From an uncultured Chloroflexia bacterium (GTDB lineage Bacteria > Chloroflexota > Limnocylindria > Limnocylindrales > CSP1-4), in assembly GCA_963728635.1 (NCBI GenBank), contig CAVSKR010000001.1:110116-174115 (forward strand): a DNA stretch of 64,000 nt, in the 5' to 3' direction. Of the stretch, positions 34,378 through 53,386 are shown in pieces (the stretch's first letter is position 1; every line of letters begins with the position of its first letter). The notes beneath the pieces were generated by a model. It was not told the origin of the DNA and did not search any database. It was given only the letters and a program-made list of their open reading frames with translations. The translations under genes were made by a program, and so were the position numbers.

Positions 34378-34737
34378 TCACGCCCTGCGCATGGACCGGT
34401 AGGGAGTGAAGAGGACCGGCACGTCGCTGCCAGCCAGCTTCGCCCTGAGCTCTGCGCTCGGCTCACCGAGCAGCTCGCCGTGAACCACTGAGACCGTCGC
34501 CAGGACCGCGTCGAACAAGTGGCCGAGATTCGCGGCGTGCTCCATCGCCGCCTCGGAGTCCCGGTACCGCTCGATGAACATGCATTCGGACTGATCGCCG
34601 TTGAGGTAGAGGTCGTATGCCAGCGTGCCAGGCTCCTTCGCTCGCACGAGCTCCGTCGCCTGATCGGACAAGCGCAAGTACTCGTCGCGCTTGCCCTCGT
34701 GAAACTTGAAACGTGCGATGCCCAGAAGCTCACTCAC
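34378..34737 (-). CDS. ABM/dimeric alpha+beta barrel protein (putative monooxygenase)
   Basis: KEPGTLAYD, ERYRDSEAAMEH. Confidence 0.8.
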   Translation of the reverse strand: MSELLGIARFKFHEGKRDEYLRLSDQATELVRAKEPGTLAYDLYLNGDQSECMFIERYRDSEAAMEHAANLGHLFDAVLATVSVVHGELLGEPSAELRAKLAGSDVPVLFTPYRSMRRA

Positions 34738-34815
34738 GGCTCAGTCCTCCGAGATTCGGCGATGAAGGCTTCCGTTCCCTGTGGGAATAATGCTTGGAGC
34801 ACACGGAGTTCCCCC

Positions 34816-37509: not shown

Positions 37510-37570
37510 CTCGACTCCTTCAGGGCGACCCGAGGTCACGCTGTGGGTGACGGCGCGGGTCTAAGTCGAT

Positions 37571-37597
37571 AGATGCCGTCCGCACGTCTGGGGTTTG
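37571..37597 (-). promoter_or_regulatory. Putative ECF promoter for the lipoprotein
   Basis: CAAACC-N14-GGCATCT on the minus strand. Confidence 0.7.
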
Positions 37598-37620
37598 GCG
37601 GACGCAGCTTCTCGCGCGAC

Positions 37621-37647
37621 CAAACCATCAACCCGCCGCTGGCATCT
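37621..37647 (+). promoter_or_regulatory. Putative autoregulated ECF promoter for sigma/anti-sigma
   Basis: CAAACC-N14-GGCATCT on the plus strand, same boxes and spacing as the divergent copy. Confidence 0.7.
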
Positions 37648-37718
37648 GGACACACGACAGCACCGAGCGACGGCGCGTCGCAGCAAGCGAGCGCTACGAT
37701 CGAGAGCCCGAGGACGAC

Positions 37719-38313
37719 GTGGACGCAGTGAGGACGGCAGCGAGCGGTACGATGTCGGCCGACGACGCGCTCGTTCGGCGCGCCCGCACCGGCGACGCGG
37801 CGGCATTCGAGGTCCTCGTCGATAGCCGTATCGACCGCTGCTACCGCCTCGCCTGGTCGATCCTGTCCAACGACGCCGACGCAGCCGATGCCACCCAGGA
37901 CGCGCTCGTGTCGGCCTGGCGGCAGCTCGCCTCGACTCCGCGATCCCGCGACGTTCGACGGCTGGCTCAACCGTATCGTCGCGAACGCCGCATTGATGGC
38001 ACGCCGACATCGTGTCCGACTGCGGGAGGTATCCGTGCGTCCCGCCTACCCGGGCGACGAAACCCCGCAGCCCGACCCGCGGCAGGACCCGCAGGCCCGC
38101 ACCGAGATGGACGAGTTCGTCGACAGCGACGCGATCGCGCGCGCCTTCGACCGGCTACGACCGAAGGACCGGATGATCCTCGTCCTCCATCACGTCGAGG
38201 AGCGGCCAGTGGCTGAGATCGCGCGGTCGCTCGGGATTCCCGTCGGGACGGCGAAGTGGCGGCTCCACGCAGCCCGGACCGCGCTCGAGAAGGCGATGGA
38301 GGCCGAGGCATGA
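37719..38313 (+). CDS. ECF sigma factor; frameshift near 37930
   Basis: GDAAAFEVLV, DAADATQDA...W, FDGWLNRIVAN, EIARSLGIPVGTAKWRLHAAR. Confidence 0.88.
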
Positions 38314-40568
38314 ACGGCCGACGCATGACCGACGCCCAGATCTCCACGGCCCTCCGCGCCCACCTTCCGGCGCGGGCAGAGTCAGGCTTGCGCGAGCGGA
38401 TCCTCGACGCCGCCGAGACCACCAAGCAGCAGCGAGCCCTGCCGTCGTTCATCGGAGCGCTCAGCGAAGCTGACCCGGTCAGCCGCCGACGCAGCCTGCT
38501 CATCGCGGCAGCGCTCCTGGTGGTGCTGGCAGTCGCGAGTGCCGCGGCGGTCGGGGCGTGGCGCCTCCTCCAGCGGGACCCCATCGACGAACTGAGTCTC
38601 CAGCCGCCGGCCGATGTCCCGGCGTTCGTCCTCTCGAGCTACGAGCGGCTACCCCAGCTGCCGCCGCTCGCCCTGACCTGGCACGACAGCGACTCGGCCA
38701 GGGGCCGCATCTATGTCGATCGGTCGGGCGCGGTCCGATTCGATCGTTTCACGTCCGCCGAGGCGGCTGAACCCGCCAGCTACAGGATCCTCAGCCCCGA
38801 CCACCGCATCAGCGGGATGGCGCCCGTTGAGTCCGAGCCGGTCTGGGTCGAACAAGGGCACGAGGCCATCGGCGAGGACCCGCGGGTATTCCTCCGAACC
38901 GTCCTCAGCGGTGACGAGGGGCCGGGCTGCGAGATGGAGCGGGAGCCGAGCAACGTCGGGAGTGGCACCGTGGCAGCGGGCTGGCGATACGTCGGTCTCG
39001 AAGACGTCGCGGGGCGCCCCACGCACCATGTCGCGTGTGCCGGCGACCTCTGGATCGACATCGAGACCCGGCTCATCCTGCGCACCCAAGGTCCAGCGGT
39101 CGATGACGCTGGTCAGCCCATCCCGGTCGAGTTCACCGAGGTCACCGAGATCGAGTTCGGCGAGCAGCCCGCAGCGCTGTTCGAACCGCCGGAGGGCGTC
39201 ACCCGAATGTCGGCGGAGGAGTACAGCGCCTACATCTGCGCGCGGGATCTCCCGAACGAGATGGCGCCCGGCATCTCGGACTGTCCGTCGACTGAGGAAG
39301 CGGAGGCAACGCCGCTGCCCGACCCCTCGCCGACTCCGATGCCCACCGCGCCTCCCGGCCCGAGCGACTGCGCAGTTCCGCCGGGAGACCCGAGCGAGCC
39401 GATCGGTCCACTGGCCTGGACCCCGGAGAGTCTGAAGGGCGACTGGCCCGCGCCCGTCCGCCCCGAGCCGGCCGGAGGCGGGAGCGTCCTACCGATGCCC
39501 CTCACGCATCTGGACCCCTCGGGCGACACCGGATCCGATGCGTTCCCCTGCATCGACATCCGCGGGGTGATGGCCGACACCGGCGAGGTGCACCTCAAGC
39601 TCGACTCGGGCCAGCCGGTCGCGGATCCCGCTGAGAACTGGATCGCGTACGGCGTTGTCACCGATGAGGATGGCGACGGCGTGCCCGACTGGCGATACGG
39701 GATCGATAACACGCCCGGCGAAGCGTGTGATGAGCTGCGCAACCGCGGGTGGCGGACGAACCTTCACACCGGCCAAACGGATGCTGACTGTGAGCATGGT
39801 GATCCGGTCTGGTGGAACGGTGGCGGCTTCAAGGGCGGGTATCCGCGCTATCCGCGCGGATCGGATGCCGGCTTCCGGTTTAGCGGCGCCGTCGAGACCA
39901 CACAAGGATCGCAAGGATGGGGCTTCGAGCTGGGCATGCCCTTCTACACGTGGGCGTCCGTGATCGTGAATGGCCGGGTCGTGGCGACCGACTACGCCCC
40001 TGACACCGGCTGGCTCGTCCCGACTCGCGGTGGGAGGCCGGGGGGCACGTTCCTGCTCGGGGATCCATTCCCGAACCTCTCGATGACCGTTCCGGAAGGC
40101 TGGACCATGAATTCGGATACGATCTTCGTAGAGGTTGCTAGCGAGTTGCGACGCGTCACATGTGGAGACCTTCCGCGAGACTATCCGCGAGACACGAGTT
40201 ATCAGGCGGATTGCGCCCACATTAGGTTCGATGTGATCGACGACCCAGAGGAGCTCTGCGACGACACGATCGAGCCGCCACTCGGGTCCAGCTTCGAGGA
40301 TCTCGTGACCTATGTCGCGGGTCTCCCGACAGTCGTTTCAGAGAACGTGACGGTCGATGGCTACCGCGGGATCCACATCTCGCGGCCCGAGGACCTCGGA
40401 AACTGTGTCCTGTGGTCCTACGAAGACGTCTGGATCCTCGACGTCGACGGCGTTCGCCTGATGATCGGTTCGGTCCCCCATGGGGACCTCCTCCATGGCG
40501 ACGTCCCCGAAGAGGCAGTGAAGGCCCAGATCCGGCAGATGGTGGAGTCGATCCACTTCGAACGCTGA
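38310..40568 (+). CDS. Membrane-anchored modular protein, probable anti-sigma factor
   Basis: ATGA overlap with sigma; short cytoplasmic domain, one TM helix, LolA/RseB-like segment (EDVAGRPTHHV...LWIDIETRLILR), Pro linker, DEDGDG motif, C-terminal domain similar to the 36766-37509 protein. Confidence 0.75.
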   Translation: MNGRRMTDAQISTALRAHLPARAESGLRERILDAAETTKQQRALPSFIGALSEADPVSRRRSLLIAAALLVVLAVASAAAVGAWRLLQRDPIDELSLQPPADVPAFVLSSYERLPQLPPLALTWHDSDSARGRIYVDRSGAVRFDRFTSAEAAEPASYRILSPDHRISGMAPVESEPVWVEQGHEAIGEDPRVFLRTVLSGDEGPGCEMEREPSNVGSGTVAAGWRYVGLEDVAGRPTHHVACAGDLWIDIETRLILRTQGPAVDDAGQPIPVEFTEVTEIEFGEQPAALFEPPEGVTRMSAEEYSAYICARDLPNEMAPGISDCPSTEEAEATPLPDPSPTPMPTAPPGPSDCAVPPGDPSEPIGPLAWTPESLKGDWPAPVRPEPAGGGSVLPMPLTHLDPSGDTGSDAFPCIDIRGVMADTGEVHLKLDSGQPVADPAENWIAYGVVTDEDGDGVPDWRYGIDNTPGEACDELRNRGWRTNLHTGQTDADCEHGDPVWWNGGGFKGGYPRYPRGSDAGFRFSGAVETTQGSQGWGFELGMPFYTWASVIVNGRVVATDYAPDTGWLVPTRGGRPGGTFLLGDPFPNLSMTVPEGWTMNSDTIFVEVASELRRVTCGDLPRDYPRDTSYQADCAHIRFDVIDDPEELCDDTIEPPLGSSFEDLVTYVAGLPTVVSENVTVDGYRGIHISRPEDLGNCVLWSYEDVWILDVDGVRLMIGSVPHGDLLHGDVPEEAVKAQIRQMVESIHFER

Positions 40569-40740
40569 CGGGCCAGGGGTTCCGCGGTCTTCCCTCGAAT
40601 CAGCTTACCCGGCAGGCAACGAGTTTTACGCTCTGCGAGCGTAGTGGCCAGGGGTTCGTGTTCACAGCACCTTATCGAGTAGACCTTCGGACCGGAAGCC
40701 GAAGGTCTAGCCACGCTCAGCGGGTATCATCGCGGTCCGC

Positions 40741-40813
40741 GCGCCTGTAGCTCAGTGGATAGAGCGTCGGCCTCCGGAGCCGAAGGTCGCAGGTTCGAAT
40801 CCTGTCGGGCGCG
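40741..40813 (+). tRNA. tRNA-Arg (CCG), CCA not encoded
   Basis: GCGCCTGTAGCTCAGTGGATAGAGCGTCGGCCTCCGGAGCCGAAGGTCGCAGGTTCGAATCCTGTCGGGCGCG; -10 TATCAT at 40726. Confidence 0.96.
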
Positions 40814-40814
40814 C

Positions 40815-40836
40815 TCGAATCCCTAGTCGGGCGTGC
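40815..40836 (+). repeat. Degenerate extra copy of the tRNA-Arg 3' end
   Basis: TCGAATCCCTAGTCGGGCGTGC vs TCGAATCCTGTCGGGCGCGC. Confidence 0.55.
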
Positions 40837-40895
40837 GACCTTTCGCGTTGGCGGCCATCGGCGCCAAGGTCCGGCGCAACTCGCATGACTACGTA

Positions 40896-41855
40896 TCAGA
40901 CGGTCGGCGTGGACGAGGCGCCCGACATGACGGGGTCGACCGCGCGCCGTGCCACCGCCGCTAGGGCCTCGACGAAGGCGGGATGGGCGTTGAGCGATTT
41001 GATCCGGTGGAAGCTCAGCCCGTGACGTTCCGCCTGCTCGCGGGCGCCAATGTCGACGTCGTAGAGGATCTCGAGATGGTCGGCCAAGAACTGGACTGGC
41101 ACGACGAGCACCGACCGTCGACCGGACGCGGCAATCTCCGGCATGAGATCGGCGAAGTCAGGCTTCATCCACTCCCCCGGCTCATGCCCGGCGCTTTGCC
41201 AACAGAACTGCCATCTGTCAGCCGAGATCCCGACCTTCCTGGCCACGGCCTCGGCCGTCTCGCGCAGCTGCGCCAGATAGGCGGGCTCCTGTTCGGCAAC
41301 GCGTCTCGGGAGGCTGTGGGCGGTCATCAGAACGGCGACGTTGTCCCGCTCGTAAGGCGAGAATCGATCGAGCGCTCCGCGGACGCGATCCGTGAGCGCG
41401 CCGACGAACGCCGGCTCAGCGTGCCAGGGACCCGCGACCTCGACCTTCGGCGCCCGATCACCGAGCTCAGCCCGGGCCTCGTCGATCGCTTTCGCGTAGC
41501 CGCTCATCAGCAGCGGCGAGTACTGAGGTGAGAGGATGATCGCCGCCACCGGCTCAATCCCGCGCGAGGCAAGAGCCGCGAGGCCAGCGGTGATCGACGG
41601 CTCCGAGAAGCGCATCCCGACTTCGACCGGCCAGCCGAGCGTCGCCTCGAGGGCGGCAGCCTGGGCCCGGGTGATGTCGATGAGCGGCGAACCACCGATC
41701 ACCCGATACCGCCGGGTGAATTCGTCGACGAGGTCTGGGTCCGGCTCGCGCCCACCACGAACGCGCGCAAGGTAGCCGCGGATGTCCTCGCGCTCCAGTG
41801 ACGCCGGCGAGCCATACGTCATCAGCAGGACGCCCCGGCGCTGCTCGCGGCTCAC
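40896..41855 (-). CDS. hemH: Ferrochelatase (coproporphyrin type, CpfC/HemH)
   Basis: GVLLMTYGSP, IGGSPL, LSPQYS, TAHSLP, WQSAG...WMKPD, FLADHLEILYDVD. Confidence 0.95.
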   Translation of the reverse strand: MSREQRRGVLLMTYGSPASLEREDIRGYLARVRGGREPDPDLVDEFTRRYRVIGGSPLIDITRAQAAALEATLGWPVEVGMRFSEPSITAGLAALASRGIEPVAAIILSPQYSPLLMSGYAKAIDEARAELGDRAPKVEVAGPWHAEPAFVGALTDRVRGALDRFSPYERDNVAVLMTAHSLPRRVAEQEPAYLAQLRETAEAVARKVGISADRWQFCWQSAGHEPGEWMKPDFADLMPEIAASGRRSVLVVPVQFLADHLEILYDVDIGAREQAERHGLSFHRIKSLNAHPAFVEALAAVARRAVDPVMSGASSTPTV

Positions 41856-42898
41856 GCGAGGGCGCCGGCGCCGACCGAGTCGCGAGCCGTCTCCTCGTGG
41901 ACGAACTCGACGAGGCGCCGAAGCAGCCCCGTGTCCGAGTCGGGCAACACGCCGTGACCAAGGTTGAAGACATGACCTGGCCGGCCGTCGGCCTCGGCAA
42001 GGACCGCGCGGGCGCCCGCTTCGGTCGCTTCCCAGCCGGCCAGGACACGCGCCGCGTCGAGGTTGCCCTGGATGCCGCGGTCGTGGCCGATCCGTCGCCA
42101 GGCATCGCCGAGCGAGACTCGATGATCGATCCCGATGACCTCGCCACCGGCTTCCGCCATGAGCTCGAGGAGCGCCGCCGTGCCGGTCCCGAAATGGATG
42201 GTCGGGGTGCCATCGAGGCCTTCGAAGATCCGTCGGACGTGCGGTTGGACGAACGAGGCGTAGTCGGCTGGGCCGAGGCCGCCGACCCAGCTGTCGAACA
42301 GCTGCACGACCTCGGCTCCGGCCTCGATCTGGGCTCGCAGGTACGCCGCGACCATCGTCGACAGCCGCTCCATCAGGTCGTGCCAGGCCTCGGGCTCGCG
42401 GTACATGAACGCCTTGGCGATCGCGTAGTCGCGCGACGGCCGGCCCTCGATGAGATAGCAGGCGAGCGTGAACGGCGCCCCCGAGAAGCCGATTACGCCG
42501 GCTTTGCCGTCGAGTTCGCGCCGGACGAGACGGACCGCGTCGAGCGTGAACGACACCTCCGCGGGGTCGAACGGCCGCAGCGCTGCGACGTCGGCGGTCG
42601 AGCGGATCGGCCGGTCGATGATCGGGCCGACCTCGGGCTCGATCCGAAGGTCGACTCCCATCGGCTCGAGCGGCAGCATGATGTCGGCGAACAGGACGGC
42701 CGCGTCGACGCCGAGCTGGCGGACGGGCATGAGGGTGACCTCGGCGCACAGCTCCGGCGTCTTCGCAAGCTCGAGGATGCCGTAGCGGTCGCGGAGCCGC
42801 CGGTACGCGGCGAACGAGCGGCCCGCCTGGCGCATGAACCAGACGGGCGTGGCGTCGACCGGCTCGCGTCGACAGGCCCGCAGGAAACGATCGTTCAT
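41852..42898 (-). CDS. hemE: Uroporphyrinogen decarboxylase
   Basis: PVWFMRQAGR, LFADIM, GAPFTLACY, QLFDSW, FNLGHGV. Confidence 0.97.
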   Translation of the reverse strand: MNDRFLRACRREPVDATPVWFMRQAGRSFAAYRRLRDRYGILELAKTPELCAEVTLMPVRQLGVDAAVLFADIMLPLEPMGVDLRIEPEVGPIIDRPIRSTADVAALRPFDPAEVSFTLDAVRLVRRELDGKAGVIGFSGAPFTLACYLIEGRPSRDYAIAKAFMYREPEAWHDLMERLSTMVAAYLRAQIEAGAEVVQLFDSWVGGLGPADYASFVQPHVRRIFEGLDGTPTIHFGTGTAALLELMAEAGGEVIGIDHRVSLGDAWRRIGHDRGIQGNLDAARVLAGWEATEAGARAVLAEADGRPGHVFNLGHGVLPDSDTGLLRRLVEFVHEETARDSVGAGALA

Positions 42899-44187
42899 GC
42901 CGCGAACGCCGTTCGAGCGGCCTCGAGCGTGGCCTCGATCTCGGCCGGCCCGTGAGTCATCGACACGAACCACGCCTCGAACTGCGACGGCGGCAGCAGG
43001 ATGCCCTGATCGAGCATCGCGCCGAAGAAGCGGGCGTAGGCATCGCGGTCGGACGCAAGCGCCTCGGCGGCGTCGGCCGGCAGCGTCGGCCGGAAGAAGA
43101 CCGTCAGCAACGACCCCACCCGGGCGACCGCCACATCTCGCCCCGCGCTGGTCGCGGCCTCGGTGAGGCCCGCTGCGAGCGCCGCCGACGACGCCTCGAG
43201 GGCCGCGTAGCGCCCCTCGTCCAGCTCACCCAGCGTGGCGATGCCCGTGGCCATCGAGAGCGGGTGGCCGGAGAGGGTGCCGGCCTGATAGACGGGACCC
43301 GCCGGCGCGACGAGATCCATGAGATCCGACCGGCCGCCGTACGCGCCGATCGGCATCCCCCCGCCGATGATCTTGCCCAGCGTCGTCAGGTCGGGCGTGA
43401 CGCCGAACCGCGCCTGCGCCCCGCCGGACCCGAGCCGGAAGCCGGTTATGACCTCATCGAAGACGAGCAGGGCGCCGTCGGCGCTGGTGACCTCGCGGAG
43501 GTACTCGAGGTAGCCGTCAAGCGGTGGGATGACTCCGACGTTCGCGACGACCGGCTCGACGATGACCGCAGCGATCCGGCCGGGCTGTGCCGCGAAGGCT
43601 CGGGTCACCGCCTCGGCGTCGTTGTACGGCAACACGATGGCCGTGGCCGCGACCGCGTCGGGCACCCCGGCGCTGCCGGCGATCGCCTGCGTCGCGAGGC
43701 CGGAGCCGGCCTCGACGAGCAGGCCATCCGAATGGCCGTGGTACGAGCCCGCGAACTTGACCACGAGATCCCGACCGGTGGCCGCACGGGCCACGCGGAG
43801 GGCGCTCATGACCGCCTCGGTGCCCGAGGACGTGAACCGGAGGCGCTCGATCGACGGAATCGCCCGCCGGATCGCCTCGGCGAGCTCGATCTCGAACGGG
43901 TGGGTGGCGCCGAGGGCGAACCCGCTGCGCGCGGCGGCGGCGACCGCCTTGACGGCGCCGGCGTGCGCGTGCCCGAGGATCGCCGGACCCCAGGCGCCGA
44001 TGTAGTCGACATAGCGCCGGCCGTCGGCGTCCCAGACGAACGGCCCCTCGCCCCGCTCGAGGACGATTGGCGGCCGGCCGACCGCTCGGAATGCTCGGAC
44101 CGGGCTGTTGACGCCACCAGGAAAGAGAGCATCCGCCCGTTCGACCAGGGCTGCGGTGCGAGTGCCGCTGCCGATCTCGGTCGTCAT
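42895..44187 (-). CDS. hemL: Glutamate-1-semialdehyde 2,1-aminomutase
   Basis: PGGVNSPVRAF, SGTEAVM, FDEVITGFR, GKIIGGGMP, YQAGTLSG. Confidence 0.97.
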   Translation of the reverse strand: MTTEIGSGTRTAALVERADALFPGGVNSPVRAFRAVGRPPIVLERGEGPFVWDADGRRYVDYIGAWGPAILGHAHAGAVKAVAAAARSGFALGATHPFEIELAEAIRRAIPSIERLRFTSSGTEAVMSALRVARAATGRDLVVKFAGSYHGHSDGLLVEAGSGLATQAIAGSAGVPDAVAATAIVLPYNDAEAVTRAFAAQPGRIAAVIVEPVVANVGVIPPLDGYLEYLREVTSADGALLVFDEVITGFRLGSGGAQARFGVTPDLTTLGKIIGGGMPIGAYGGRSDLMDLVAPAGPVYQAGTLSGHPLSMATGIATLGELDEGRYAALEASSAALAAGLTEAATSAGRDVAVARVGSLLTVFFRPTLPADAAEALASDRDAYARFFGAMLDQGILLPPSQFEAWFVSMTHGPAEIEATLEAARTAFAA

Positions 44188-44873
44188 GGCGCACCCAGGA
44201 GAGCGAGGATCTCGTCCATTGGACGGTGGATCCCTAGCAGGATCGGGGTGTCGCTGACGGTCGAGCGCCGGCTCTCGGTCGCCCGCAGTGCCCGGACGAG
44301 GTCGCCGAAGGCGACGAGATCGTCGGTCTCGTAGGCGACCACGAACTCCTGCGAATCGAGCCCGAATGAGTACGCCAGGGCCTGGCGGATCATCGGGTAC
44401 TCGTGGCCGACCCGCATGTGCTCGTTCATGATCCCCTGGCGGGCCTCCTTCGAGAGGAGGTACCACTCGGTGCTCTTCGTGAACGGGTAGACGATGAGGT
44501 AGCGGGAGCGGTCGCCGCCGAAGAGCGACTGCTCCTGGTCGGTCGGCTTTCGAACGTACTGGGACAGACCGATCCGGCCGATCAGCGAATGGCGGACGGT
44601 CAGCCAGCATCCGAGCCCGGCGCGCAGGAGTCCAGCCGCTGCCGTCTCCAGCGCATCGACCGACGGTGCTATCCGCCAGAACAGGAGGTCGACGCCCGGC
44701 TCGAGACCGACCGACGAGTAGCTGATGCTGCGGACCTCCTTCAGCTCGGCCGCCGCCACGGCCTCACCGAAGCGGCAGCCGTCGTCGCGGCGCTCCTCGT
44801 CCGTCCGGCGTCGCCAGGCCGGATCGAGCCCGAGGGCGAGCGCCTGGATGTAGGTCTGCTCGTCGCCGCTCAT
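44184..44873 (-). CDS. hemQ: Coproheme decarboxylase (ChdC/HemQ, chlorite dismutase-like family)
   Basis: VYPFTK...WYLL...EHMRVG (proximal His), [12 protein letters not shown] with Gln rather than the Cld Arg; inside the hem operon. Confidence 0.88.
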
Positions 44874-45907
44874 CGGCCGCTCTCCTCGTGGAGCCAGGTC
44901 GCGAGGTCCGCGGCAGCATAGGTGATGACGATCCCCGCGCCGGCCCGGACGATCGCCGTGACCGCCTCGGTCATCGCCCGCCGTCCGTCCAGCCAGCCGC
45001 GCTCGGAGGCGGCGGCAATCATCGCGAATTCCCCGGAGACCTGATAGGCGGCGATCGGCACGTCGAATTGGGCGCGAGCCGCGGCGACGAGGTCGAGCCC
45101 CGGGAGCGCCGGCTTGATCAGCAGAATGTCGGCGCCTTCCGCGACGTCGAGGTCCATCTCCCGGAGCGCCTCGCGGCCGTTGGCCGGGTCCATCTGGTAG
45201 CCGCGCCGATCGCCGAAGGCGGGCGCGCTGTCGGCCGCCTCCCGGAAGGGGCCGTAGAACGCGGAGGCGTGCTTCGAGGCGTAGGCCATGATCGGGGTCT
45301 GCTCGAACCCTGCCGCATCGAGGGCGGCACGGATCGCGCCGACTTGGCCGTCGATCATTGCGCTCGGTGCGACGATGTCGGCGCCGGCTCGCGCCTGGGT
45401 GACCGCCGTCTCGGCCAGCCGGACGAGCGCGGCGTCGTTTTCGACGCTCCCGTCCGCAGCCAGCGGCCCGCAGTGGCCGTGGTCGGTGTATTCGCACAGG
45501 CATGTGTCGGCGATCGTGACGAGCGGCAGCTCGAGTGCCCGGATCCGGCGGAACGCGTCCTGGACGATCCCGTCTTCGGCGGATGCTTCTGTACCCAGCG
45601 GGTCCTTCGACTCTGGCAGACCGAACAGGATGACGCCGCCCACGCCGAGCTCGGCCAGGCGCGCGGCTTCCGCGGCGGCGAGGTCCGGCGACAGCCGGGC
45701 CTGACCGGGCATCGAACTGATCGCGTCGCGGCGGCCCGCGCCCGGTTGCACGAACAGCGGAGCGACGAGCATGGATGGATGAACGCGGGTCTCCCGGACC
45801 AGCGCCCGCAGCGCGGGTGTGCGCCGCAACCGTCGGGGTCGGACGGGCAGCGATGCAGAAATGGCGGGCGGCGCGGACGAGGGCGGTGCTTCGAGATCGA
45901 GCGTCAT
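44870..45907 (-). CDS. hemB: Porphobilinogen synthase (Zn-type)
   Basis: [41 protein letters not shown]. Confidence 0.97.
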
Positions 45908-47604
45908 GAGATCTCCTGCGGGTTGAGGGCCAGGGCACGTGCGGTAGCCGCGGCAAGCGCGACCGAGTCCGGAGCTGGGGAGCGGGCGAGAATCCGGAAC
46001 CCCGCCGCACGGGCTTCGTCGGCCGTCTCGGGACCGATGCAGACCGAGGGGATCGAGAGGACATCGATCAATTCGTCGCGCGCGAGCTTGACCAGGCCTC
46101 GGACCGTCGAGCCGCTGGTGAAAGCGACGGCGGCGAGCGGTCCATCCGAGAAGGCCTCCCTCAGCAGGAGCGCCGACGCTTCAGGCGCCTCGCGCGTTCG
46201 GTACGCGACGACGTCGTCGACCAAGGCGCCACGCGCCCGCAGCGCCATCGCCAGCTCCTCGTCGGCGAGGTCGCCGCGCACGACCAGGACCCGATCCCCA
46301 TGCGCGACCGGCAGCTCGATGGCCAGCGCCATGGCGCTGCTCTGGCTCGGCTGGAGCGCAATCTCGATGCCCTCGCGTTCGAGCACCCGACGCGTCGCGG
46401 GCCCGATCGCCGCCCACGACGGCGCTCCCAGCTCGGTCAGGATCCGCTCGGCCGCCTTGAGGATCGCCCGGGCGCCGTTCGCGCTCGTGATGACGACCCA
46501 GGCATACGTGTGCAGGAGCCCTGCGGCCGTATCGAGGTCTCCATGTGGCGGTTCGAACTCGACCGCGATCGTCGGAACCAGGACGGGATCGAGTCCCGCG
46601 TCCCTCAGGGCCGAGGCGAGCTCGTCGGCCTGGTCGGCAGCCCGCGTCACGAGCACCCGGCGCCGTCCGGACCGCGCCGTCTCCGGACCGACGGATCCGG
46701 CAGCACGGCGGATTCGGCCACCGGGGTCGAGCTCTGCTGCGAGCTCGCGGCCCAGTTCCTGGCCCGTCGCGGCCGGCCCACGACGGCGAGTCACGATCGT
46801 GTCCGAGCCGTCCGGGCTGGCGTAGCCGCCAAATAGCTCGAGCTCCTCGTCGGCGATCGTGGCCAGCGCTCCGATCGGGGCGCGGCAGCCGCCGCCGGAC
46901 GCGCTCAAGAAGGCCCGCTCGGCCTCGACCGCCAGGCGCGTGGCTCGATCATCGATCGTGCCGGTCAGCGCGAGCAACTTGGAATCGTCTCCCCGAACCT
47001 GGATCGCGATCGCCCCCTGGCCCGGCGCGGGCGGAACGATCTCGGGCTCGAGACGCTCGGCGATCCGGTCACCGAGGCCCATGCGGTCCAGTCCCGCGCA
47101 CGCGAGGACGAGCGCATCTGTCTCGCCCTCATCGAGCCGGCGGAGCCGAGTGTCGACGTTGCCGTGGAGCGGATGGACGACGAGGTCCGGTCGTCGAGCA
47201 AGCAGGAAGCCCGTCCGCCGCGGACTGTCCGTCCCGACGCGAGAGCCCGGCGGCAGATCGGCGATGCGCCGCTCCGTCGCATCGTCCCGGACGACGAGCG
47301 CATCGCGAGGATCGGCGCGCGGAAGATACGCGCCGATCCGGAGTCGCGGATCCTCGTCGGTCGGAACGTCCTTGGCGCTGTGGACGGCTAGATCCACGCG
47401 TCCGTCCAGCAGCGCCCGCTCGATCGCGGCGACGAACGCGCCCTCTCCCCACGCTGTGTCAGGAGCCCGACGGTCGCCCTCGGTCTCGATGATCACGACC
47501 CGGCTCGCATGACCCCCTCGTGCCAGGGCCTCGTGGACGAGCCTCGCCTGGGCCAGCGCCAGCGCGCTGCCCCGCGAGCCGATCGCGATCTCCGGGCCGT
47601 TCAC
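45904..47604 (-). CDS. hemC: Fused hydroxymethylbilane synthase / uroporphyrinogen-III synthase (HemC-HemD)
   Basis: [32 protein letters not shown]; then RVLVTRA, TSANG, VAYRT, FTSGSTV, CIGPET. Confidence 0.94.
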
Positions 47605-48770
47605 AGGGCGAAGATGTCCCGGATCGTTCGCTCGTCACGACCGTCGGCATCCCGGCCGAGGCGCTCGAGGGGCTCGCGGAAGAGGCGCGTGGCGAGGTGC
47701 CGGGTCATCTGTTCGATCGCGTCTCGCGCCTCGGGTTCCAGGTCGGGAAGTCGCCGCCACAGCGCCGCGAGCTCAGCTTCACGTTCCTGATCCACATGCC
47801 TGACGAGCGCCTCGGCGGTGGCGCGCCCGTCACGGGCGTTCAGCCAGCCGAGGAACTGGACCGTGGCGCGATCGACGAGCGCGTCGACGGGGGCGCGCGA
47901 GCCATCCTGTGGTGTCGTGGGGTCGGGATCGGCGAGCACCAACGCGTCGGCCGGGACAAAGCGCGGACCCAGCGCCTCCGGCAGCCCTTCCGGCACTGCC
48001 GCCGGCACCGACAAATCGATGACGACGGTCGGGCTCGCACTCAGTGCATCGATTGTGGCCGCGCCGATCGGCCACGGGCCGCCGAGGGCGACCATGACGA
48101 CGGCGAACTCGGCAATCCGTACGCCCGGGTCGAAGGCCACGATCCGAGCGCCGGTTGTGGCGGCAAGGGACTGGGCGCCCTCGGCTGAACGGTTGGCGAC
48201 CGAGACCGATGCCCCAGCCGCGACGGCTGCCGTCGCGGCCAGCTGACCCATCCGGCCCGCGCCGACGACGAGGATGTGGCGACCCCGCAGCGGCCCGACC
48301 TGTCTCTCGATGATCGACAGCGCGACATCCGCCAGCGAGCGCTGCGGGCCTTGACGCCACGACCGGGCCCGGCGCCCAGCCTGCAGGGCGACCGCGAAGA
48401 GTCGCTCGAGCGCGGGGTCGAGCGCGCCGGCATCGCGGGCCGCGTCAACCGATACGCGCAGCTGGTGGAGGATCTGATCCTCCCCGACAACAACCAAATC
48501 GCGCCCGACGGCGACGGATATCGCATGGTGGATTGCCGGCTCGCCGATGAGCGCCCTGCCGCCCCGCGGAAGGTAGGCGGCGAGGGCTAAACGGGCCGGA
48601 TCGTCCGGGCTGACGACATACGCTTCGACGCGGTGGCACGTAGAGAGCACGAGCCCCTTGTCGGTCAGTTCGTCGCGGAGTCGGGTTGCGAACAATTCGC
48701 GCTCAACCGCAGGGACCTGGCGGGCGTGGGTGACGAGCGCCACGACGGCGGACGACGCGGCCTGGCTCAC
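47601..48770 (-). CDS. hemA: Glutamyl-tRNA reductase
   Basis: LSTCHRVE (catalytic Cys), VGEDQILHQ, VGAGRMG, VANRS, IDLSVP. Confidence 0.9.
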   Translation of the reverse strand: MSQAASSAVVALVTHARQVPAVERELFATRLRDELTDKGLVLSTCHRVEAYVVSPDDPARLALAAYLPRGGRALIGEPAIHHAISVAVGRDLVVVGEDQILHQLRVSVDAARDAGALDPALERLFAVALQAGRRARSWRQGPQRSLADVALSIIERQVGPLRGRHILVVGAGRMGQLAATAAVAAGASVSVANRSAEGAQSLAATTGARIVAFDPGVRIAEFAVVMVALGGPWPIGAATIDALSASPTVVIDLSVPAAVPEGLPEALGPRFVPADALVLADPDPTTPQDGSRAPVDALVDRATVQFLGWLNARDGRATAEALVRHVDQEREAELAALWRRLPDLEPEARDAIEQMTRHLATRLFREPLERLGRDADGRDERTIRDIFAL

Positions 48771-49465
48771 GCCTCTCGATCCTCGTCCACGGCAGCGGCG
48801 GTGGGCAACCCGCGCCGACGCGAGCCCGACTCGCGGGTGTGGCCCGTCATCGTCGCGACCAACAGGCGGTCCATGGCGCGCTCGGCGGTCTCGAGAAGGT
48901 CAGTCGTCTCGGCTGTATCGAATCCGCGTCTGCGGGCCGCAACCGCGAGCTCGTGGTGGAACGGTGCGCGGAAGCGGAGGAAGCCCTCGACGGTCTGGCT
49001 GAGGGAGAGACGGAGCGTCGCCGCGACCTGCCCGTACTCGGCGGCTGTAGCCGACGCCGCCTTCAGGTGGTGGGCCGCGGTATCCGGTTGCGTGCTGTCA
49101 AGGTATTGGAGAAGGCTGGCGGCGAGGACCTGGCCTCGCTCGCGGAACAGGATCCGCTGATCGTCTGTGAGCTTGAGAACCCAGGGAAGCTCGGGGGCCG
49201 CCTCCCGGCTCGCCCGGCGGTATGTCCGCGCGATCCTGCTGGGCGAGAGCCCTGCGCCACCGATAGAAGGCCGCCGTGATCGATCAGCCGGGAGAAGACC
49301 CTCTAGCGCAGCCCGCGAGAAGCGTCGATGGCCGCCCGGCGTTGTGAACACCCGAAGACGACCGGCATCGCTCCAACGGCGCAGTGTGGCGGGCGAAACA
49401 CCAAGGACGCGGCTGGCCTCCGACAGGCCTACCCAGTCCGGATCCCGGGATGTGAGGCGGCTCAT
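48767..49465 (-). CDS. MerR/excisionase-type HTH regulator with all-helical C-terminal domain
   Basis: LSEASRVLGVSPATLRRWSDAG...TPGGHRRF; first gene of the hem operon, GTGA-coupled to hemA. Confidence 0.85.
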   Translation of the reverse strand: MSRLTSRDPDWVGLSEASRVLGVSPATLRRWSDAGRLRVFTTPGGHRRFSRAALEGLLPADRSRRPSIGGAGLSPSRIARTYRRASREAAPELPWVLKLTDDQRILFRERGQVLAASLLQYLDSTQPDTAAHHLKAASATAAEYGQVAATLRLSLSQTVEGFLRFRAPFHHELAVAARRRGFDTAETTDLLETAERAMDRLLVATMTGHTRESGSRRRGLPTAAAVDEDREA

Positions 49466-49467
49466 GA

Positions 49468-49514
49468 AACCTACTCAAATCTACCAGAACATCATCGACT
49501 CGCTCAATGTAGCA
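49468..49514 (-). promoter_or_regulatory. hem operon promoter and 10-bp-period direct repeats
   Basis: Extended -10 TGcTACATT (49506-49514); GTAGATT and GTAGGTT 10 bp apart between promoter and ATG. Confidence 0.5.
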
Positions 49515-49782
49515 CGGCGGAGGCGTTGAGTTCTCGCGTTGCTACGTATTGGAGCGGCGCGGCCAGGCGCGGTGTTGGGATGGGCATCTGACTCACCCCG
49601 AAAGCGGCGAGGCGGCAGGCCTGTCGCGAGTTCAGACGGTGGTGAGTGGCCTATCGGTAGGGCACCTGACTCCTGGATCAGGCGATCGTCAGACAGCGAT
49701 TGCGCGCTGCGCACCATCGCGGCCTGCCAATCGTCCACTCCCTCGATCGGGATCGACTTCATTCCGACGTGGGTACGCGAAC

Positions 49783-49806
49783 GTTCGAATCCTGTCGGGC
49801 GCGCCA
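49783..49806 (+). repeat. attR-like duplicated tRNA-Arg 3' end including CCA
   Basis: GTTCGAATCCTGTCGGGCGCGCCA. Confidence 0.85.
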
Positions 49807-49947
49807 TTTCATCCTTTTGGGGCAGTGCCAGCGCCAATCCGTGCGCGTAGGCCGCCGCGGTCAGCCGGACACCCACGATCTCCAGGCCCGCCCGCGGCTT
49901 TCCATCAGCCGATCCGGCCCACACCAGCCTGGATCGCCGGCACCCCG

Positions 49948-50349
49948 TCAGCGGCGTAGGTCCCGCCACACGACGACCGCTGCGATTGCGCGAAGAGGTG
50001 CCATCACGATCAGGTACGGAAGCGCGAAGAGCCACCCGAGGGCGAGGCTCAGCGGCGCCATCACGAGGGCCAGCGCTGCGCCACGAGGCCTGCCCTGCCT
50101 GAGCCACCGGCCGATGAGGACGTCGACGATCGAGACTGCGATAAGCAGCCACGCGAGGGCCCAGCCAAGTGGCGTCAGGCGATCGGTCCCGATCTCCGGG
50201 TACGGGCCGCCCAGCAGCCGCCAGCCGAACGGGCTCATCGGCAACTCACCCCGCTCTCGGTGGTACAGGAGGACGGCCAGGGTGGCGATGACCCAGCCGA
50301 CGCCCGGCACGGAGTAGATCGACCCCAGGACCCGATGCATGTGCGCCAC
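49948..50349 (-). CDS. Hypothetical membrane protein (paralog of the C-terminal half of the next gene)
   Basis: GELPMSPFGWRLLGGP...LGWLFALPYL. Confidence 0.7.
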   Translation of the reverse strand: MAHMHRVLGSIYSVPGVGWVIATLAVLLYHRERGELPMSPFGWRLLGGPYPEIGTDRLTPLGWALAWLLIAVSIVDVLIGRWLRQGRPRGAALALVMAPLSLALGWLFALPYLIVMAPLRAIAAVVVWRDLRR

Positions 50350-50371
50350 CGCCTTCGCTTCGGACTGCCCC

Positions 50372-51163
50372 TCAAGGTTGCCGGGCTGCGTTGAGGCCCC
50401 CGCGCCGAGCCTGCCACATGCCTACAAGGACCAGTCCCGCCCGCACGGGGACCCCGATCAGGAGGAGCGGCAGCGCGAACCCGAGGCCAAGAGCGAACAC
50501 AACGGGGTCGACCAGAAGCGCCAGTTGGACACCGCGCCGCTGTCCGCGCCAGAGCAGCAGCCCGGCCACCACGGAGACCACTGAGGCCGCGACGAGTGCG
50601 AAGCCGGCTGCCAGGAACCCTGTTCGCCCCAGCTCCTCGACCGGCCCTGAAAGGGCTCGAAACGAGAACATCATCGGGAGGTAGCCGTTGTCGGTGTAGA
50701 AGGCGAGGACGACGGGAACCGACGCACCGAAGGCAAGTCCGAGGAAGACGTACAGGGTTGCCGCAAGCCGGAGCCAACCAGTGCCGGGGGCCGCTGGCTC
50801 AGCGGATGCCACGACGATGTCTGGTCCCTCGTACCGCGTGCGCTTGCCCAGGATCATCCAGGCCGCGTAGCCGATGGCGGTTCCGGCCATGGCCAAGAAG
50901 GTATCTGTGATCCGGGCCTCGCCCCCTTGAAGGACGGCGAGGGTGCCGTAGACGGCGAGCCATGCGACGCCGAATACGACCGACGTCGCCACGGCGCGGC
51001 CCGGCGAGCGCAGCAGGAGCCAAGCCCCGACTGCAACCGTCGCAATCCCGAGGACGAGGGTGACGACGTACCCGTCCGGTTCGGTGCGAAAGACGAACGT
51101 GATCACGATTGAGAACAGCGCGGTCGCCAGCCACGCGATCCCGAGCGCCCTGAACCTGGTCAT
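50372..51163 (-). CDS. Hypothetical two-domain membrane protein
   Basis: 7-8 TM helices; GYLPMMFSFRALSGP...LGLGFALPLL. Confidence 0.72.
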   Translation of the reverse strand: MTRFRALGIAWLATALFSIVITFVFRTEPDGYVVTLVLGIATVAVGAWLLLRSPGRAVATSVVFGVAWLAVYGTLAVLQGGEARITDTFLAMAGTAIGYAAWMILGKRTRYEGPDIVVASAEPAAPGTGWLRLAATLYVFLGLAFGASVPVVLAFYTDNGYLPMMFSFRALSGPVEELGRTGFLAAGFALVAASVVSVVAGLLLWRGQRRGVQLALLVDPVVFALGLGFALPLLLIGVPVRAGLVLVGMWQARRGGLNAARQP

Positions 51164-51187
51164 CGACCCCTTCCCTTCCTGTCCCCT

Positions 51188-51229
51188 GTATACGCCGTAT
51201 ACCGAGGGGTGAGTCTACGACGTATACTC
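51188..51229. promoter_or_regulatory. Two palindromic TetR-type operators
   Basis: GTATACG-C-CGTATAC (51188-51202) and GAGTCTACG-A-CGTATACTC (51211-51229) between divergent genes. Confidence 0.7.
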
Positions 51230-51234
51230 CAGCT

Positions 51235-51903
51235 GTGCAAGCCCCTGGATCGTCCCGTCAAGCACTGTCAACCGACGCGGTCGTTGACGCTGCGCTGCAG
51301 ATGGCCGATGAAGGCGGACTCGATGCCGTCAGTCTCCGCAGACTCGCCTCCAAGTTCGGTGTCACGCCGATGGCGCTCTACCGACACGTCAGGGACAAGG
51401 ACCACCTCCTCGACCTGATGGCGGGTCGCCTGCTCGACGAGCTCGACGTGGCGACCGAGAGGGAGTCGACGTGGCAGGAGGAGTTACGCCGTCTCGGCGA
51501 CAGTTTCCTTGCGCTCGTCGCTGCCCACCCGGCGGCACCGTTCCTGCTTTCGCGCCCATTCGAGTCGCCCGGGTCGTTGCGGGTCAGTGTCGCGCTCTTC
51601 GAGATCCTCGATCGAGCTGGGTTCGATCCGCGCGACGCAGTCCACCTCCTGCAGGCGCTGACAGGCATGCTCCTGGGCCCGGCGGTCCACCGCGCCACGT
51701 ACGCGGCAGCAGCTGCCAGGAAGGGCTCGAGCGGACCGAGCGAGCCACCCGGAATGGCCACCGCGGCCGGGGGAGAGCCGGACTGGCGAGTCGACCAGCT
51801 GACTGCCTGGGCCGCTGGTCCCGACTCCGATCGCCTGGTCGTCGAGCTATGGGTCGCAGGAGTTCAAGGACTTGCCGCGAGTCAACCGCGAGCAGGCGCC
51901 TGA
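51235..51903 (+). CDS. TetR family regulator (TetR_C type)
   Basis: LSTDAVVDAAL...SLRRLASKFGVTPMALYRHV. Confidence 0.92.
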   Translation: MQAPGSSRQALSTDAVVDAALQMADEGGLDAVSLRRLASKFGVTPMALYRHVRDKDHLLDLMAGRLLDELDVATERESTWQEELRRLGDSFLALVAAHPAAPFLLSRPFESPGSLRVSVALFEILDRAGFDPRDAVHLLQALTGMLLGPAVHRATYAAAAARKGSSGPSEPPGMATAAGGEPDWRVDQLTAWAAGPDSDRLVVELWVAGVQGLAASQPRAGA

Positions 51904-51914
51904 GCCGGCCTCGT

Positions 51915-52343
51915 TCAGCCGGCGCGCCGCTCCAGCACGAAGACCGGGAGCACTCGGCTCGTCTTGCTCGGGTAGGCCGCGAACTCCGGGTAGAGCCGGG
52001 CGTGCTCGTCGTAGAGCCGCTGGCGCTCGTCGCCCTTCGCTTCGCGCGCGACGACCTGGAATGGGACGTTGGCGGTTTCGAACGTCGCTTCAGGGTGCGC
52101 GACGAGGTTGTGATACCAGGCGGGGTGCTCGTCGGCGCCGCCCTTCGTGGCTGCGATGACGAAGTCGTCTCCGTTGCGGTGGTAAGTCACGATCGCAGTC
52201 CGATCCTGGCCGGTCTTCGCCCCTTTGGAGGTCATGATCGCAAGCGGACGGCCGGCCAGCGGCCCGGACGACGGGGTGCCGCCGTTCGCGCGGAGGTCTT
52301 CGATCATGTTGCGGGTCCAGGCATCTGGGTCCCAGGTCGTCAT
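51915..52343 (-). CDS. Deazaflavin (F420)-dependent nitroreductase family protein (Ddn-like)
   Basis: KGAKTGQDR, ATKGGADEHPAWYHNLVAHP, YPSKTSRVLPVFVL. Confidence 0.92.
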   Translation of the reverse strand: MTTWDPDAWTRNMIEDLRANGGTPSSGPLAGRPLAIMTSKGAKTGQDRTAIVTYHRNGDDFVIAATKGGADEHPAWYHNLVAHPEATFETANVPFQVVAREAKGDERQRLYDEHARLYPEFAAYPSKTSRVLPVFVLERRAG

Positions 52344-52395
52344 CTGATTTGCCTCCCGTTCGGGATGTAGCGGGCCTCGCGGGATCGCGCCCGCG

Positions 52396-53379
52396 CTATC
52401 GGTCGAGTTCGACCGGTGTCACTTCGAGGGACACGATCGAGCCATCCCGCTCCACCCCGACCGGCACGCGCCGGCCGACCATCTCACCGACCATGACCCG
52501 CTGGAGATCGCCGACACCCTCGATCGGTTTGCCGTCGAGCTCGACGATCACGTCGCCGGCGCGGACCCCGGCGGCAGAAGCCGGGCTCCCATCGAGGAGT
52601 TGGATGACCTCGAGCCCCCGGCGGCGTCCGAGCCGCTCGGCAAGGGCCGCCCTGAGCGGGCGCGTGCCGCCGACGACCCCGAGGAACGCCCGCTTGACGC
52701 GGCCGTGGTGCATCAGCGACGTGAGGATCGCTCGTGTCCCGGTGTTGATCGGGACGGCCAGGCCGAGCCCGATCCCGGCGACGGCGGTGTTGATCCCGAC
52801 GACCCGGCCACGGCTGTCGGCCAGCGCGCCACCGGAGTTGCCGGGGTTGAGCGCGGCGTCGGTCTGGATGACGTTCTCGACGAGCCGGCTCGCCCGGCCG
52901 TCGCGCGCCGCAAGCGACCGCCCGAGTGCGCTCACGACGCCCGCGGTCACGCTGCCCGCAAAGCCGAGCGGGTTGCCGATCGCGACGACCAGCTGGCCGA
53001 CCTTCAGCTGGTCGGCATCGCCGAGCGGCGCGGCGGTGAGGCCGTTGCCCCCCGCACGAACGACCGCGAGATCCGACAGCGGGTCCCGCCCGACGACGTC
53101 GAACGTGATTTCCGTGCCATCGACGAACGTCGCAGTCCCGCCGCTCGCGCCAGCGACGACGTGCGCCGAGGTCAGGAGGTAGCCGTCCGGAGTGAACGCG
53201 ACGGCCGAGCCGGCGCCCCCACCCCAGCCGTTGTCACGGCGAACCCGAAGGCTCGCCACGGACGGGATCAGGCGCTCGGCCGCGGTGCTGACGGCAAGCG
53301 AGTACGCGTCGAGCGCATCGCGGTCGTCGATGTCGTTGAGGGTCTCGTCCGCTGCGATCGCGGATCGTTCGACGACCAT
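52396..53379 (-). CDS. S1C/HtrA-like serine protease with PDZ domain
   Basis: LTSAHVV, SDLAVV, QTDAALNPGNSGG, C-terminal PDZ. Confidence 0.93.
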   Translation of the reverse strand: MVVERSAIAADETLNDIDDRDALDAYSLAVSTAAERLIPSVASLRVRRDNGWGGGAGSAVAFTPDGYLLTSAHVVAGASGGTATFVDGTEITFDVVGRDPLSDLAVVRAGGNGLTAAPLGDADQLKVGQLVVAIGNPLGFAGSVTAGVVSALGRSLAARDGRASRLVENVIQTDAALNPGNSGGALADSRGRVVGINTAVAGIGLGLAVPINTGTRAILTSLMHHGRVKRAFLGVVGGTRPLRAALAERLGRRRGLEVIQLLDGSPASAAGVRAGDVIVELDGKPIEGVGDLQRVMVGEMVGRRVPVGVERDGSIVSLEVTPVELDR

Positions 53380-53386
53380 CGCTGGG

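Follow-up and report, generated by a model that had tools for sequence, protein, structure and literature searches.

Heme synthesis is usually viewed as core metabolism, and where free-living bacteria lack it, this is seen as the final stage of a loss. The coproporphyrin-dependent heme operons of Gram-positive bacteria comprise hemAXCDBL, hemEHY, and hemQ. Elements that integrate at tRNA genes with the help of a tyrosine integrase form a well-known general class of mobile DNA. Here, we analyze a 64,000-nucleotide stretch of an uncultured Chloroflexia bacterium of the CSP1-4 lineage (the window; assembly GCA_963728635.1, contig CAVSKR010000001.1, positions 110,116 to 174,115 of the forward strand), in which an eight-gene heme (hem) operon is framed by the 3′ end of a tRNA-Arg(CCG) gene and a second, exact copy of that end. 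This 9-kb block is probably a horizontally acquired, recombinase-less island that carries a self-contained, translationally coupled heme operon and was inserted where the genome's only tRNA-Arg(CCG) gene ends.

Several described systems come close to this arrangement. As set out in the ICEberg 2.0 article (PMC6323972), cis-mobilizable elements (CIMEs) have lost their integration and transfer genes, have kept attL and attR, and are mobilized after tandem accretion with an integrative and conjugative element (ICE). On the side of heme metabolism, Kim et al. (bioRxiv 10.1101/2021.01.11.426183) name Chloroflexota as one of the phyla in which predicted heme auxotrophs are frequent. For Limnocylindria, heme biosynthesis is one of the traits modeled in PMC13212565, the supplements of which may bear on the distribution reported below.

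A heme operon between two copies of a tRNA-Arg 3′ end

The source genome (G000) is a metagenome-assembled genome (MAG) of 3.31 Mb in 6 contigs with 94% completeness. Other G-numbers denote related genomes, and L-numbers denote fetched loci or contigs, including the metagenome contigs L185 and L191. Gene calls are based on Pfam and NCBIfam profile searches. The features of the locus are as follows (window coordinates).

40741–40814, plus strand: tRNA-Arg(CCG) (ARAGORN), the sole copy in G000, CCA not encoded
40793–40814, plus strand: direct repeat copy 1, from the T-loop to the tRNA 3′ end
40815–40844, plus strand: trailer x, 30 nt, in which the tRNA 3′ end is repeated in tandem in degenerate form (TCGAATCC..TCGGGCG..)
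40896–41855, minus strand: hemH, ferrochelatase/coproporphyrin ferrochelatase type (PF00762, 2e-69; TIGR00109 above cut-off)
41852–42898, minus strand: hemE, uroporphyrinogen decarboxylase (PF01208, 5e-120; TIGR01464 above cut-off)
42895–44187, minus strand: hemL, glutamate-1-semialdehyde aminomutase (PF00202; TIGR00713 above cut-off)
44184–44873, minus strand: hemQ, chlorite-dismutase-like coproheme decarboxylase (PF06778, 1e-44; NF042928 HemQ_actino, 1.8e-30, below its cut-off)
44870–45907, minus strand: hemB, porphobilinogen synthase (PF00490, 2e-131; NF006762 above cut-off)
45904–47604, minus strand: hemC-hemD fusion, hydroxymethylbilane synthase plus uroporphyrinogen-III synthase (PF01379, PF03900, PF02602; TIGR00212 above cut-off)
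47601–48770, minus strand: hemA, glutamyl-tRNA reductase (PF05201, PF01488, PF00745; hemA NCBIfam models matched below cut-offs)
48767–49465, minus strand: regulator with an N-terminal helix-turn-helix (HTH) of the excisionase/BldC/MerR type (PF12728, PF00376; TIGR01764)
49466–49525, minus strand: conserved region 5′ of the regulator, probable promoter/operator, the outer cassette limit common to other genomes (BLAST blocks; alignment with G044)
49718–49782, minus strand: remnant with homology to the distal P arm in the attP of a serine recombinase, coding for ..IPIEGxDxW.. (alignments)
49783–49806, plus strand: copy 2 of the direct repeat, followed by CA; corresponds to the displaced 3′ end of the tRNA, CCA included
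49805 to ~49912, minus strand: 3′ scrap of the gene for a large serine recombinase, a pseudogene remnant of ~35 codons whose third positions are poor in GC

The 22-nt 3′ end of tRNA-Arg(CCG), GTTCGAATCCTGTCGGGCGCGC, recurs exactly at 49783–49804, at an offset of 8990 nt. An earlier note, made from the sequence alone, had pointed out this repeat, and ARAGORN together with an exact repeat search confirms it. When up to 3 mismatches are allowed, the 22-mer has three matches in the window, the third being the 3′ end of a tRNA-Asp; 100 dinucleotide-preserving shuffles of the window yield no match at this threshold. The exact 22-mer occurs twice in the whole G000 assembly, and the similarity of the two copies reaches 27 nt at 2 mismatches.

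The two copies differ in what follows them. Copy 2 continues with CA and hence encodes CCA, whereas the tRNA-Arg(CCG) gene itself continues with TCGAA. CCA is encoded by 46 of the 48 credible tRNAs of G000, tRNA-Arg(CCG) being one of the two exceptions, and the gene for a CCA-adding enzyme is present. The simplest reading is that the functional tRNA-Arg(CCG) now finishes in island-derived sequence and that copy 2 is its original CCA-bearing 3′ end. Trailer x would then be the tRNA-Arg trailer of the donor lineage, brought in with the att region of the island. The identical junction of a CCA-less tRNA with x is found, independently of G000, in metagenome contig L185, and L191 carries a displaced tRNA fragment with x. 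The other credible tRNA of G000 without an encoded CCA is tRNA-Glu(TTC) (C1:444688–444762); one of the hem cassettes of G033 lies 4.3 kb from its ortholog.

The operon is read in the order regulator, hemA, hemC-hemD, hemB, hemQ, hemL, hemE, hemH, with all eight genes on the minus strand. According to the coordinates, seven of the seven gene junctions are 4-nt start/stop overlaps; the overlap of hemE and hemH (GTGA) was read directly. By Pfam, the eight genes are the only cargo between the repeats, and no integration or transfer genes are found among them. Thus, the description in the earlier note of a hem operon as essentially the sole cargo, coupled by 4-bp overlaps, holds on the evidence of Pfam, NCBIfam, and the coordinates. 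Promoter and terminator scans gave no signal. The enzyme families are those of the Gram-positive coproporphyrin operons, with HemQ and a Gram-positive type of HemH among them. In contrast to these operons, the island unites eight genes in a single operon with 4-nt overlaps, places an HTH regulator first, and fuses hemC with hemD, and no CgoX/HemY was found in the island operon or in the G000 genome.

Relatives carry the empty site

We searched window positions 37000–54000 against 30 relatives and then read the tRNA-Arg loci individually. In 11 loci from nine congeners, the tRNA has 76 nt and encodes CCA in every case (11/11). Nine of these loci pass directly into a flank that matches window positions 49805–49900; in G016 this is only partly the case, and in G011 not at all. 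The two genomes closest to G000 by rpoB, G096 and G087 (96% identity), also possess an uninterrupted, CCA-encoding tRNA plus the same flank. In total, tRNA-Arg without adjoining hem genes is found in 13 loci of 11 genomes, and 11 of the 13 directly abut the recombinase flank. These are the empty-site alleles for which the earlier note had proposed to look in related MAGs. The hem block is an insertion at the 3′ end of tRNA-Arg(CCG), and the polarity of the insertion can be read from these loci.

A different reading, which sees in the G000 tRNA a native attB that was never occupied and in hem its native neighbor, was rejected because all 11 of the relatives' 11 copies encode CCA. It is further contradicted by the sister genomes, which carry CCA plus the scar, and by the persistence of the CCA-bearing end as copy 2.

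Synteny between G000 and its closest relatives G096 and G087 does not reach farther from tRNA-Arg than ~120 nt on the upstream side and ~100 nt on the downstream side, and the locus is therefore a plastic hotspot. Relatives also exhibit extra copies of the ~60–120-nt upstream region together with the first ~41 nt of tRNA-Arg(CCG), located 2.5–8 kb upstream of the real gene (G087:C19:8940–9096 and 13348–13450; G096:C2:347064–347220; G004:C149; G016:C2). These copies imply insertions that duplicated the 5′ half of the tRNA; none is found in G000.

The hem cassette occupies many loci and conflicts with the species marker

As scored by a single Pfam family in MAGs (hemB, PF00490), which limits the labeling of genomes as hem-minus, the pathway is present in 34 of 101 genomes of the genus and in 10 of the 21 that are at least 90% complete. 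At the order level, hemB is found in 49 of 151 genomes, with 47 of 108 in a large-genome family (f1) and one of 42 in a sister family with 1.1-Mb genomes (f2). The two families would fit the pair CSP1-4 and Limnocylindraceae described in PMC13212565.

From 25 genomes, 26 further hem loci were retrieved, and BLAST was used to place their flanks in G000. The block conserved among them extends from ~40945 to 49514–49538 (window coordinates). These loci represent at least 12 different flanking contexts, and tRNA-Arg(CCG) is found at none of the 26. For four contexts, G000 possesses the clean empty site (between C5:1164.6k and 1165.5k, C1:28.8k and 29.55k, C1:~499k and 500.9k, and C5:201415 and 201574), the last of which corresponds to the G033b cassette. 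Three cassette types can be distinguished: a full type, a type that lacks hemA and hemL (8 loci), and a divergent type with an extra hemE-like copy that sits at a single constant locus in seven genomes (variants are found, for example, in L024, L028, and L033). The regulator accompanies all three types and adjoins the hem genes in 23 of the 26 loci. G033 has two cassettes at different loci. A gene beside the short cassette in G033b was considered as a 5-aminolevulinate synthase and rejected, as NCBIfam assigns it to the general pyridoxal phosphate-dependent aminotransferases.

In a set of 80 loci that encode the regulator protein, several of which are the same records as the G-genome loci, a tRNA lies within 800 nt of the cassette in six, and hem genes lie at tRNA-Arg(CCG) in none. 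Six of 80 is only mildly above a rough expectation, the loci are not independent, and we do not use this adjacency as evidence. Of the six, only the G044 record has a repeat; at the five other tRNA-adjacent loci, no repeat was found at the tRNA. An att site borne by the cassette itself was also considered and rejected because the sequence downstream of hemH differs in 67 of 67 loci compared.

The rpoB DNA tree of 41 genomes, in which hem-minus means not among the 34 hemB positives, groups G000 with the hem-less G096 and G087 (support 100). On this tree, hem presence requires at least 10 changes, six of which are forced by well-supported branches. In the concatenated protein tree of HemCD-B-Q-E-H, the nearest neighbor of G000 is G057 (81% identity), which is distant on rpoB. 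The approximately unbiased (AU) test rejects a hem-operon clade of the rpoB-defined group G000, G006, G033a, and G033b (p = 0.0006); the group was taken from the rpoB tree, but chosen after the hem tree had been seen. The nucleotide identity of the hem genes to G000 does not track that of rpoB, as G033 shares 93.8% in rpoB and 74% in hem, and G057 shares 87.7% and 79%, respectively.

The cassette behaves as a horizontally transferred, multi-locus unit, and in G000 it forms an island without a recombinase but with the scar of one beside it. The earlier note had proposed heme synthesis as an exchangeable cassette and a comparison of hem and species trees as a check; empty sites, multiple locations, and the conflict of the hem tree with rpoB support this proposal. 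Synteny of the operon at this site in relatives combined with vertical descent, which that note had set against its own reading, is not what the 26 other loci and the trees reveal.

A second cassette is framed by a tRNA

In G044, a full cassette begins 290 nt after tRNA-Thr(CGT) and is closed by an exact 48-bp repeat that spans the tRNA from the anticodon loop to the 3′ end. Genes for a ModE-like regulator and a molybdate transporter (chromosomal mod genes) lie beyond the repeat. No integrase was found at this tRNA-Thr hem island.

In G000, the tRNA-Thr(CGT) gene (C1:534165–534239, minus strand) is adjoined by a tyrosine integrase gene (C1:533445–533999), and a 47-bp repeat of the tRNA, again from the anticodon loop to the 3′ end, is located 15.6 kb away (518489–518535 on C1). 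The 47-bp repeat of G000 and the 48-bp repeat of G044 have the same start position. Because the G000 element shares this repeat start with G044, an integrase family that uses an att site in tRNA-Thr exists in the genus, and the hem island of G044 looks like an integrase-less hitchhiker of that family. On the other side of the G000 tRNA-Thr, a 37-nt repeat of the 5′ half is found at a distance of 5 kb (C1:539453–539489), so that one tRNA appears to have islands on both sides.

The scar of a serine recombinase abuts the island

The statement of the earlier note that no recombinase lies inside or beside the island is true for intact genes, none of which is detected by Pfam inside it or within ~10 kb on either side, but not for remnants, as the last ~35 codons of a serine recombinase directly abut copy 2. 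From this contact it is clear that the locus is a multiply used integration hotspot. With the scrap as query, matches are found in 63 of the 101 genus genomes. G007 possesses an intact frame of 501 codons from stop to stop (496 amino acids from the ATG) with a Resolvase domain (L017 2055–3557), which terminates 21 codons into the antisense of tRNA-Arg; the copies in G012 and G013 are decayed.

Seven relatives retain the unrecombined site within the 3′ end of the recombinase gene itself, followed by the stop codon ~32 codons later. This site is a near-perfect palindrome, GCGCGCCCGACA-GG-TGTYGGRCGCGC. The attP of the recombinase (L017 2055–3557, L176–L182, and window positions 49484–49912) is a 12+2+12 palindrome inside the gene's own 3′ end that mimics the acceptor/T stem of tRNA-Arg, and integration therefore swaps the last ~32 codons of the recombinase for 21 codons antisense to the tRNA. 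Exchange at the central dinucleotide accounts for the 16-nt repeats (CCTGTCGGGCGCGCCA) that are found in G007, in G010, and at three sites in G000.

The three G000 sites, which are of the att type of this recombinase family and carry the tRNA-Arg core, are located at C1:451561, C5:1198141, and C5:1199743; in addition, tRNA-Gln(CTG) is adjoined by a recombinase scrap (C5:1196875–1197166). The great distance of these sites and of the scrap from tRNA-Arg points to earlier rearrangements between sites of this kind. The tRNA-Arg island of G007 (L017 8241–19579) encodes RHS-repeat proteins, a protein with an eCIS-core domain, and a tyrosine integrase.

Entry of the island and alternative explanations

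In the ancestral state, which congeners have kept, a CCA-encoding tRNA-Arg would have been followed at once by the 3′ end of a large serine recombinase gene, the relic of an earlier element. The hem island would have entered by recombination inside the 22-nt block between T-loop and 3′ end. In doing so, it would have supplied its own copy of the block plus the foreign trailer x, which would now complete a tRNA without CCA, and the original 3′ end, its CCA, and the recombinase scrap would have been displaced 9 kb downstream. The most likely agent would be a tRNA-targeting integrase that acted in trans on an integrase-less, CIME-like island; an integrase of the tyrosine type would fit both the repeat from T-loop to 3′ end and the precedent of G044. 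Alternatively, the island may have entered by homologous recombination via the conserved arms provided by the tRNA and the recombinase scar. It is probably immobile now. The modes of mobilization put forward in the earlier note, in trans or by recombination at tRNA fragments, are putative but compatible with the data.

Several observations weigh against acquisition of the hem operon as a repeat-bounded island. The canonical product of the serine recombinase in the genus is only a 16-nt repeat, with a palindromic P-type left half-site at the distal junction. Copy 2 is laid out differently: the P′ arm of the recombinase and the shared core are followed by 8–13 nt of the tRNA type and then by the distal P arm, and copy 2 is thus a chimera. 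The inner 8–13 nt of the P-arm remnant (49718–49782) are tRNA-like rather than P-type, with ATTCGAAC (tRNA type) at the position where the seven relatives have TGTYGGRC. Because copy 2 is chimeric, simple action of the local serine recombinase does not explain the 22-nt repeat, which may record more than one event. No intact cognate recombinase was found anywhere in the G000 assembly. Moreover, the repeats do not coincide with the conserved limits of the cassette (the hemH stop codon and ~50 nt upstream of the regulator), but enclose non-cassette DNA, namely 81 nt past the hemH stop and ~317 nt on the regulator side. The GC content of 0.69–0.74 inside the island does not deviate from the 0.69–0.72 outside, no donor above ~82% nucleotide identity is present among the sampled genomes, and trailer x occurs in L185 without hem genes within 2 kb. 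Both flanks are available for 20 other hem loci, and only one of them, that of G044, is flanked by a repeat of more than 16 nt. The scoring of hem by one family and the use of a single marker, rpoB, as the species tree also count here.

In an alternative explanation, the repeats are the scar of an earlier turnover of elements at a tRNA-Arg hotspot that serine and tyrosine recombinases use, and the hem operon arrived separately, by illegitimate or homologous recombination, in a decayed, repeat-bounded remnant, so that the repeats do not mark the hem event. The chimeric copy 2 embedded in a serine recombinase attP arm, the occurrence of trailer x without hem, the three additional att-type sites of the same recombinase family in G000, the extra 5′ fragments of tRNA-Arg in relatives, the missing repeats at most hem loci, and the variable sequence downstream of hemH all speak for this explanation. 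Against it, the hem genes are the sole cargo between the repeats, which is independently the case at the tRNA-Thr of G044, and the lost CCA, the foreign trailer, and the displaced CCA copy fit a single recombination in the 22-nt block. On balance, we regard a separate arrival of the hem genes as unlikely.

Still less credible is an ancestral operon at tRNA-Arg that the relatives lost by recombination between the 22-nt repeats. Such a deletion predicts just the arrangement of tRNA, CCA, and scar seen in the relatives. However, hem genes are found at tRNA-Arg(CCG) in none of the 26 other hem loci and none of the 80 regulator loci, the empty sites are scattered across the rpoB tree, among them those of the hem-positive G013 and G004, which carry hem elsewhere, and the hem tree conflicts with rpoB. 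We consider this explanation very improbable.

Finally, a mis-join at the short repeat that placed an unrelated hem contig beside the tRNA, as might be suspected for a MAG for which a matching public-run contig ends at the repeat and no listed piece bridges the left junction, is hardly conceivable, because 22 nt are too short to mislead an assembly of 6 contigs for 3.3 Mb, the junction of tRNA and x recurs independently in L185, the right junction is covered by the public contig, and the composition is uniform. That contig matches 49328–49808 without differences, ends right at the repeat, and covers the right junction. Among the public-run contigs, none spans the island and none contains a circle junction. 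None bridges the left junction either, and this point again counts against an acquired island. The public reads are uninformative on excision, as the best runs contained only 0.22 and 0.20 of the sampled words and gave low-depth contigs. Taken together, horizontal acquisition of the hem operon as a recombinase-less island at tRNA-Arg(CCG) remains the preferred reading.

The heme pathway in G000 and its hem-less relatives

According to profile searches, the hemH of the island encodes the only ferrochelatase of G000, and the intact hemB and hemE of the genome are also located in the island. A check for other hem copies, as the earlier note had suggested, revealed a second, frameshifted cluster, hemA-hemC-hemD-hemB-hemL (C4:36850–43018), that runs off the contig end and shares 32–59% protein identity with the island genes. 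It contains several frameshifts (pseudogenes or assembly errors) and is preceded by an intact gene for a membrane protein. The cluster represents an older set of tetrapyrrole genes in decay or else a contig end that is foreign or of low quality.

UroD, CpfC (HemH), and ChdC (HemQ) of the coproporphyrin-dependent pathway are all present in G000. For CgoX/HemY, TIGR00562 gives only an N-terminal match of 33 bits in G000, versus 248 bits in G057. DUF1444 (CgoN) and HemF have no match in the 94%-complete assembly of G000, and a HemN-like gene scores below the cut-off. Because CgoX/HemY, CgoN, and HemF are missing, one step of the coproporphyrin route is unaccounted for in G000. G057 has HemY, and L144 appears to have it directly after hemH. 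Because no coproporphyrinogen oxidase was found, G000 is no more than a putative heme prototroph.

The hem-less G096, G087, G036, and G066 lack ALAD, UroD, and ferrochelatase and encode an intact subunit I of the heme-copper oxidase (COX1). This gene content fits heme auxotrophy, and it lends support to the suspicion raised in the earlier note that relatives may be heme auxotrophs. The island would thus supply heme synthesis to a lineage whose nearest relatives probably depend on outside heme. In the window, genes for a Dyp-type (heme) peroxidase and an ABM-family monooxygenase (56076–57122 and 34381–34740, respectively) are located less than 7 kb from the island.

Comparison with described elements and implications

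Among described elements, CIMEs are the closest category, and the hem island shows their defining features only partly. Like a CIME, it is bounded by repeats at a site used by recombinase-bearing elements of the genus, it has no integrase or transfer genes, and it stands in tandem with the remnant of another element. In contrast to a CIME, it has no intact partner element, its repeat measures 22 nt compared with the local 16-nt product, and its right copy is chimeric; moreover, its cargo is a core cofactor pathway, and its mobilization is putative.

With the tRNA-anchored elements that carry a tyrosine integrase, such as the 15.6-kb tRNA-Thr(CGT) element of G000, the hem island shares the insertion at a tRNA 3′ end, the replacement 3′ end with a foreign trailer, the displaced fragment at the far end, and the empty sites in relatives. 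It differs from them in that it lacks an integrase gene, has a size of only 9 kb, comprises one operon, and bears no compositional signature. The serine recombinase islands of the genus (G007, with RHS-repeat cargo) occupy the same tRNA-Arg(CCG) and use an overlapping target (CC + TGTCGGGCGCGC), and the hem island keeps a piece of the P arm and abuts the P′ scrap. Insertion of these islands yields a 16-nt repeat whose P-type half-site is palindromic, and their recombinase lies beside the tRNA; the hem island shows neither feature.

Kim et al. describe free-living, respiring bacteria without heme synthesis, similar to the hem-less relatives of G000. Their study deals with repeated loss, whereas in the present genus one movable cassette also allows the pathway to be regained or exchanged. 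Among the publications listed for heme auxotrophy in actinobacterial MAGs, heme biosynthesis on horizontally transferred genomic islands, heme in Limnocylindria, and large serine recombinases at tRNA genes, we found no heme operon described as a tRNA-anchored or multi-locus movable cassette.

Beyond this locus, we tentatively suggest that heme synthesis, and with it all tetrapyrrole synthesis, might be an accessory trait of the pangenome in this genus of soil Chloroflexota. About one-third of the species would carry a floating cassette that was captured repeatedly at tRNA hotspots by at least two recombinase families and then stripped down to the operon, and the others would respire with the heme of their neighbors.

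In this genus, a complete heme operon behaves like an island gene: it is found in a minority of species and at many loci, it is twice framed by a tRNA, and it conflicts with the species marker. At the tRNA locus, elements of the serine and the tyrosine type are layered and leave behind cargo without a recombinase. The gain of a cofactor pathway thereby becomes directly testable, and the finding also bears on the structure of producers and auxotrophs in soil communities and on the cultivation of an uncultured class.

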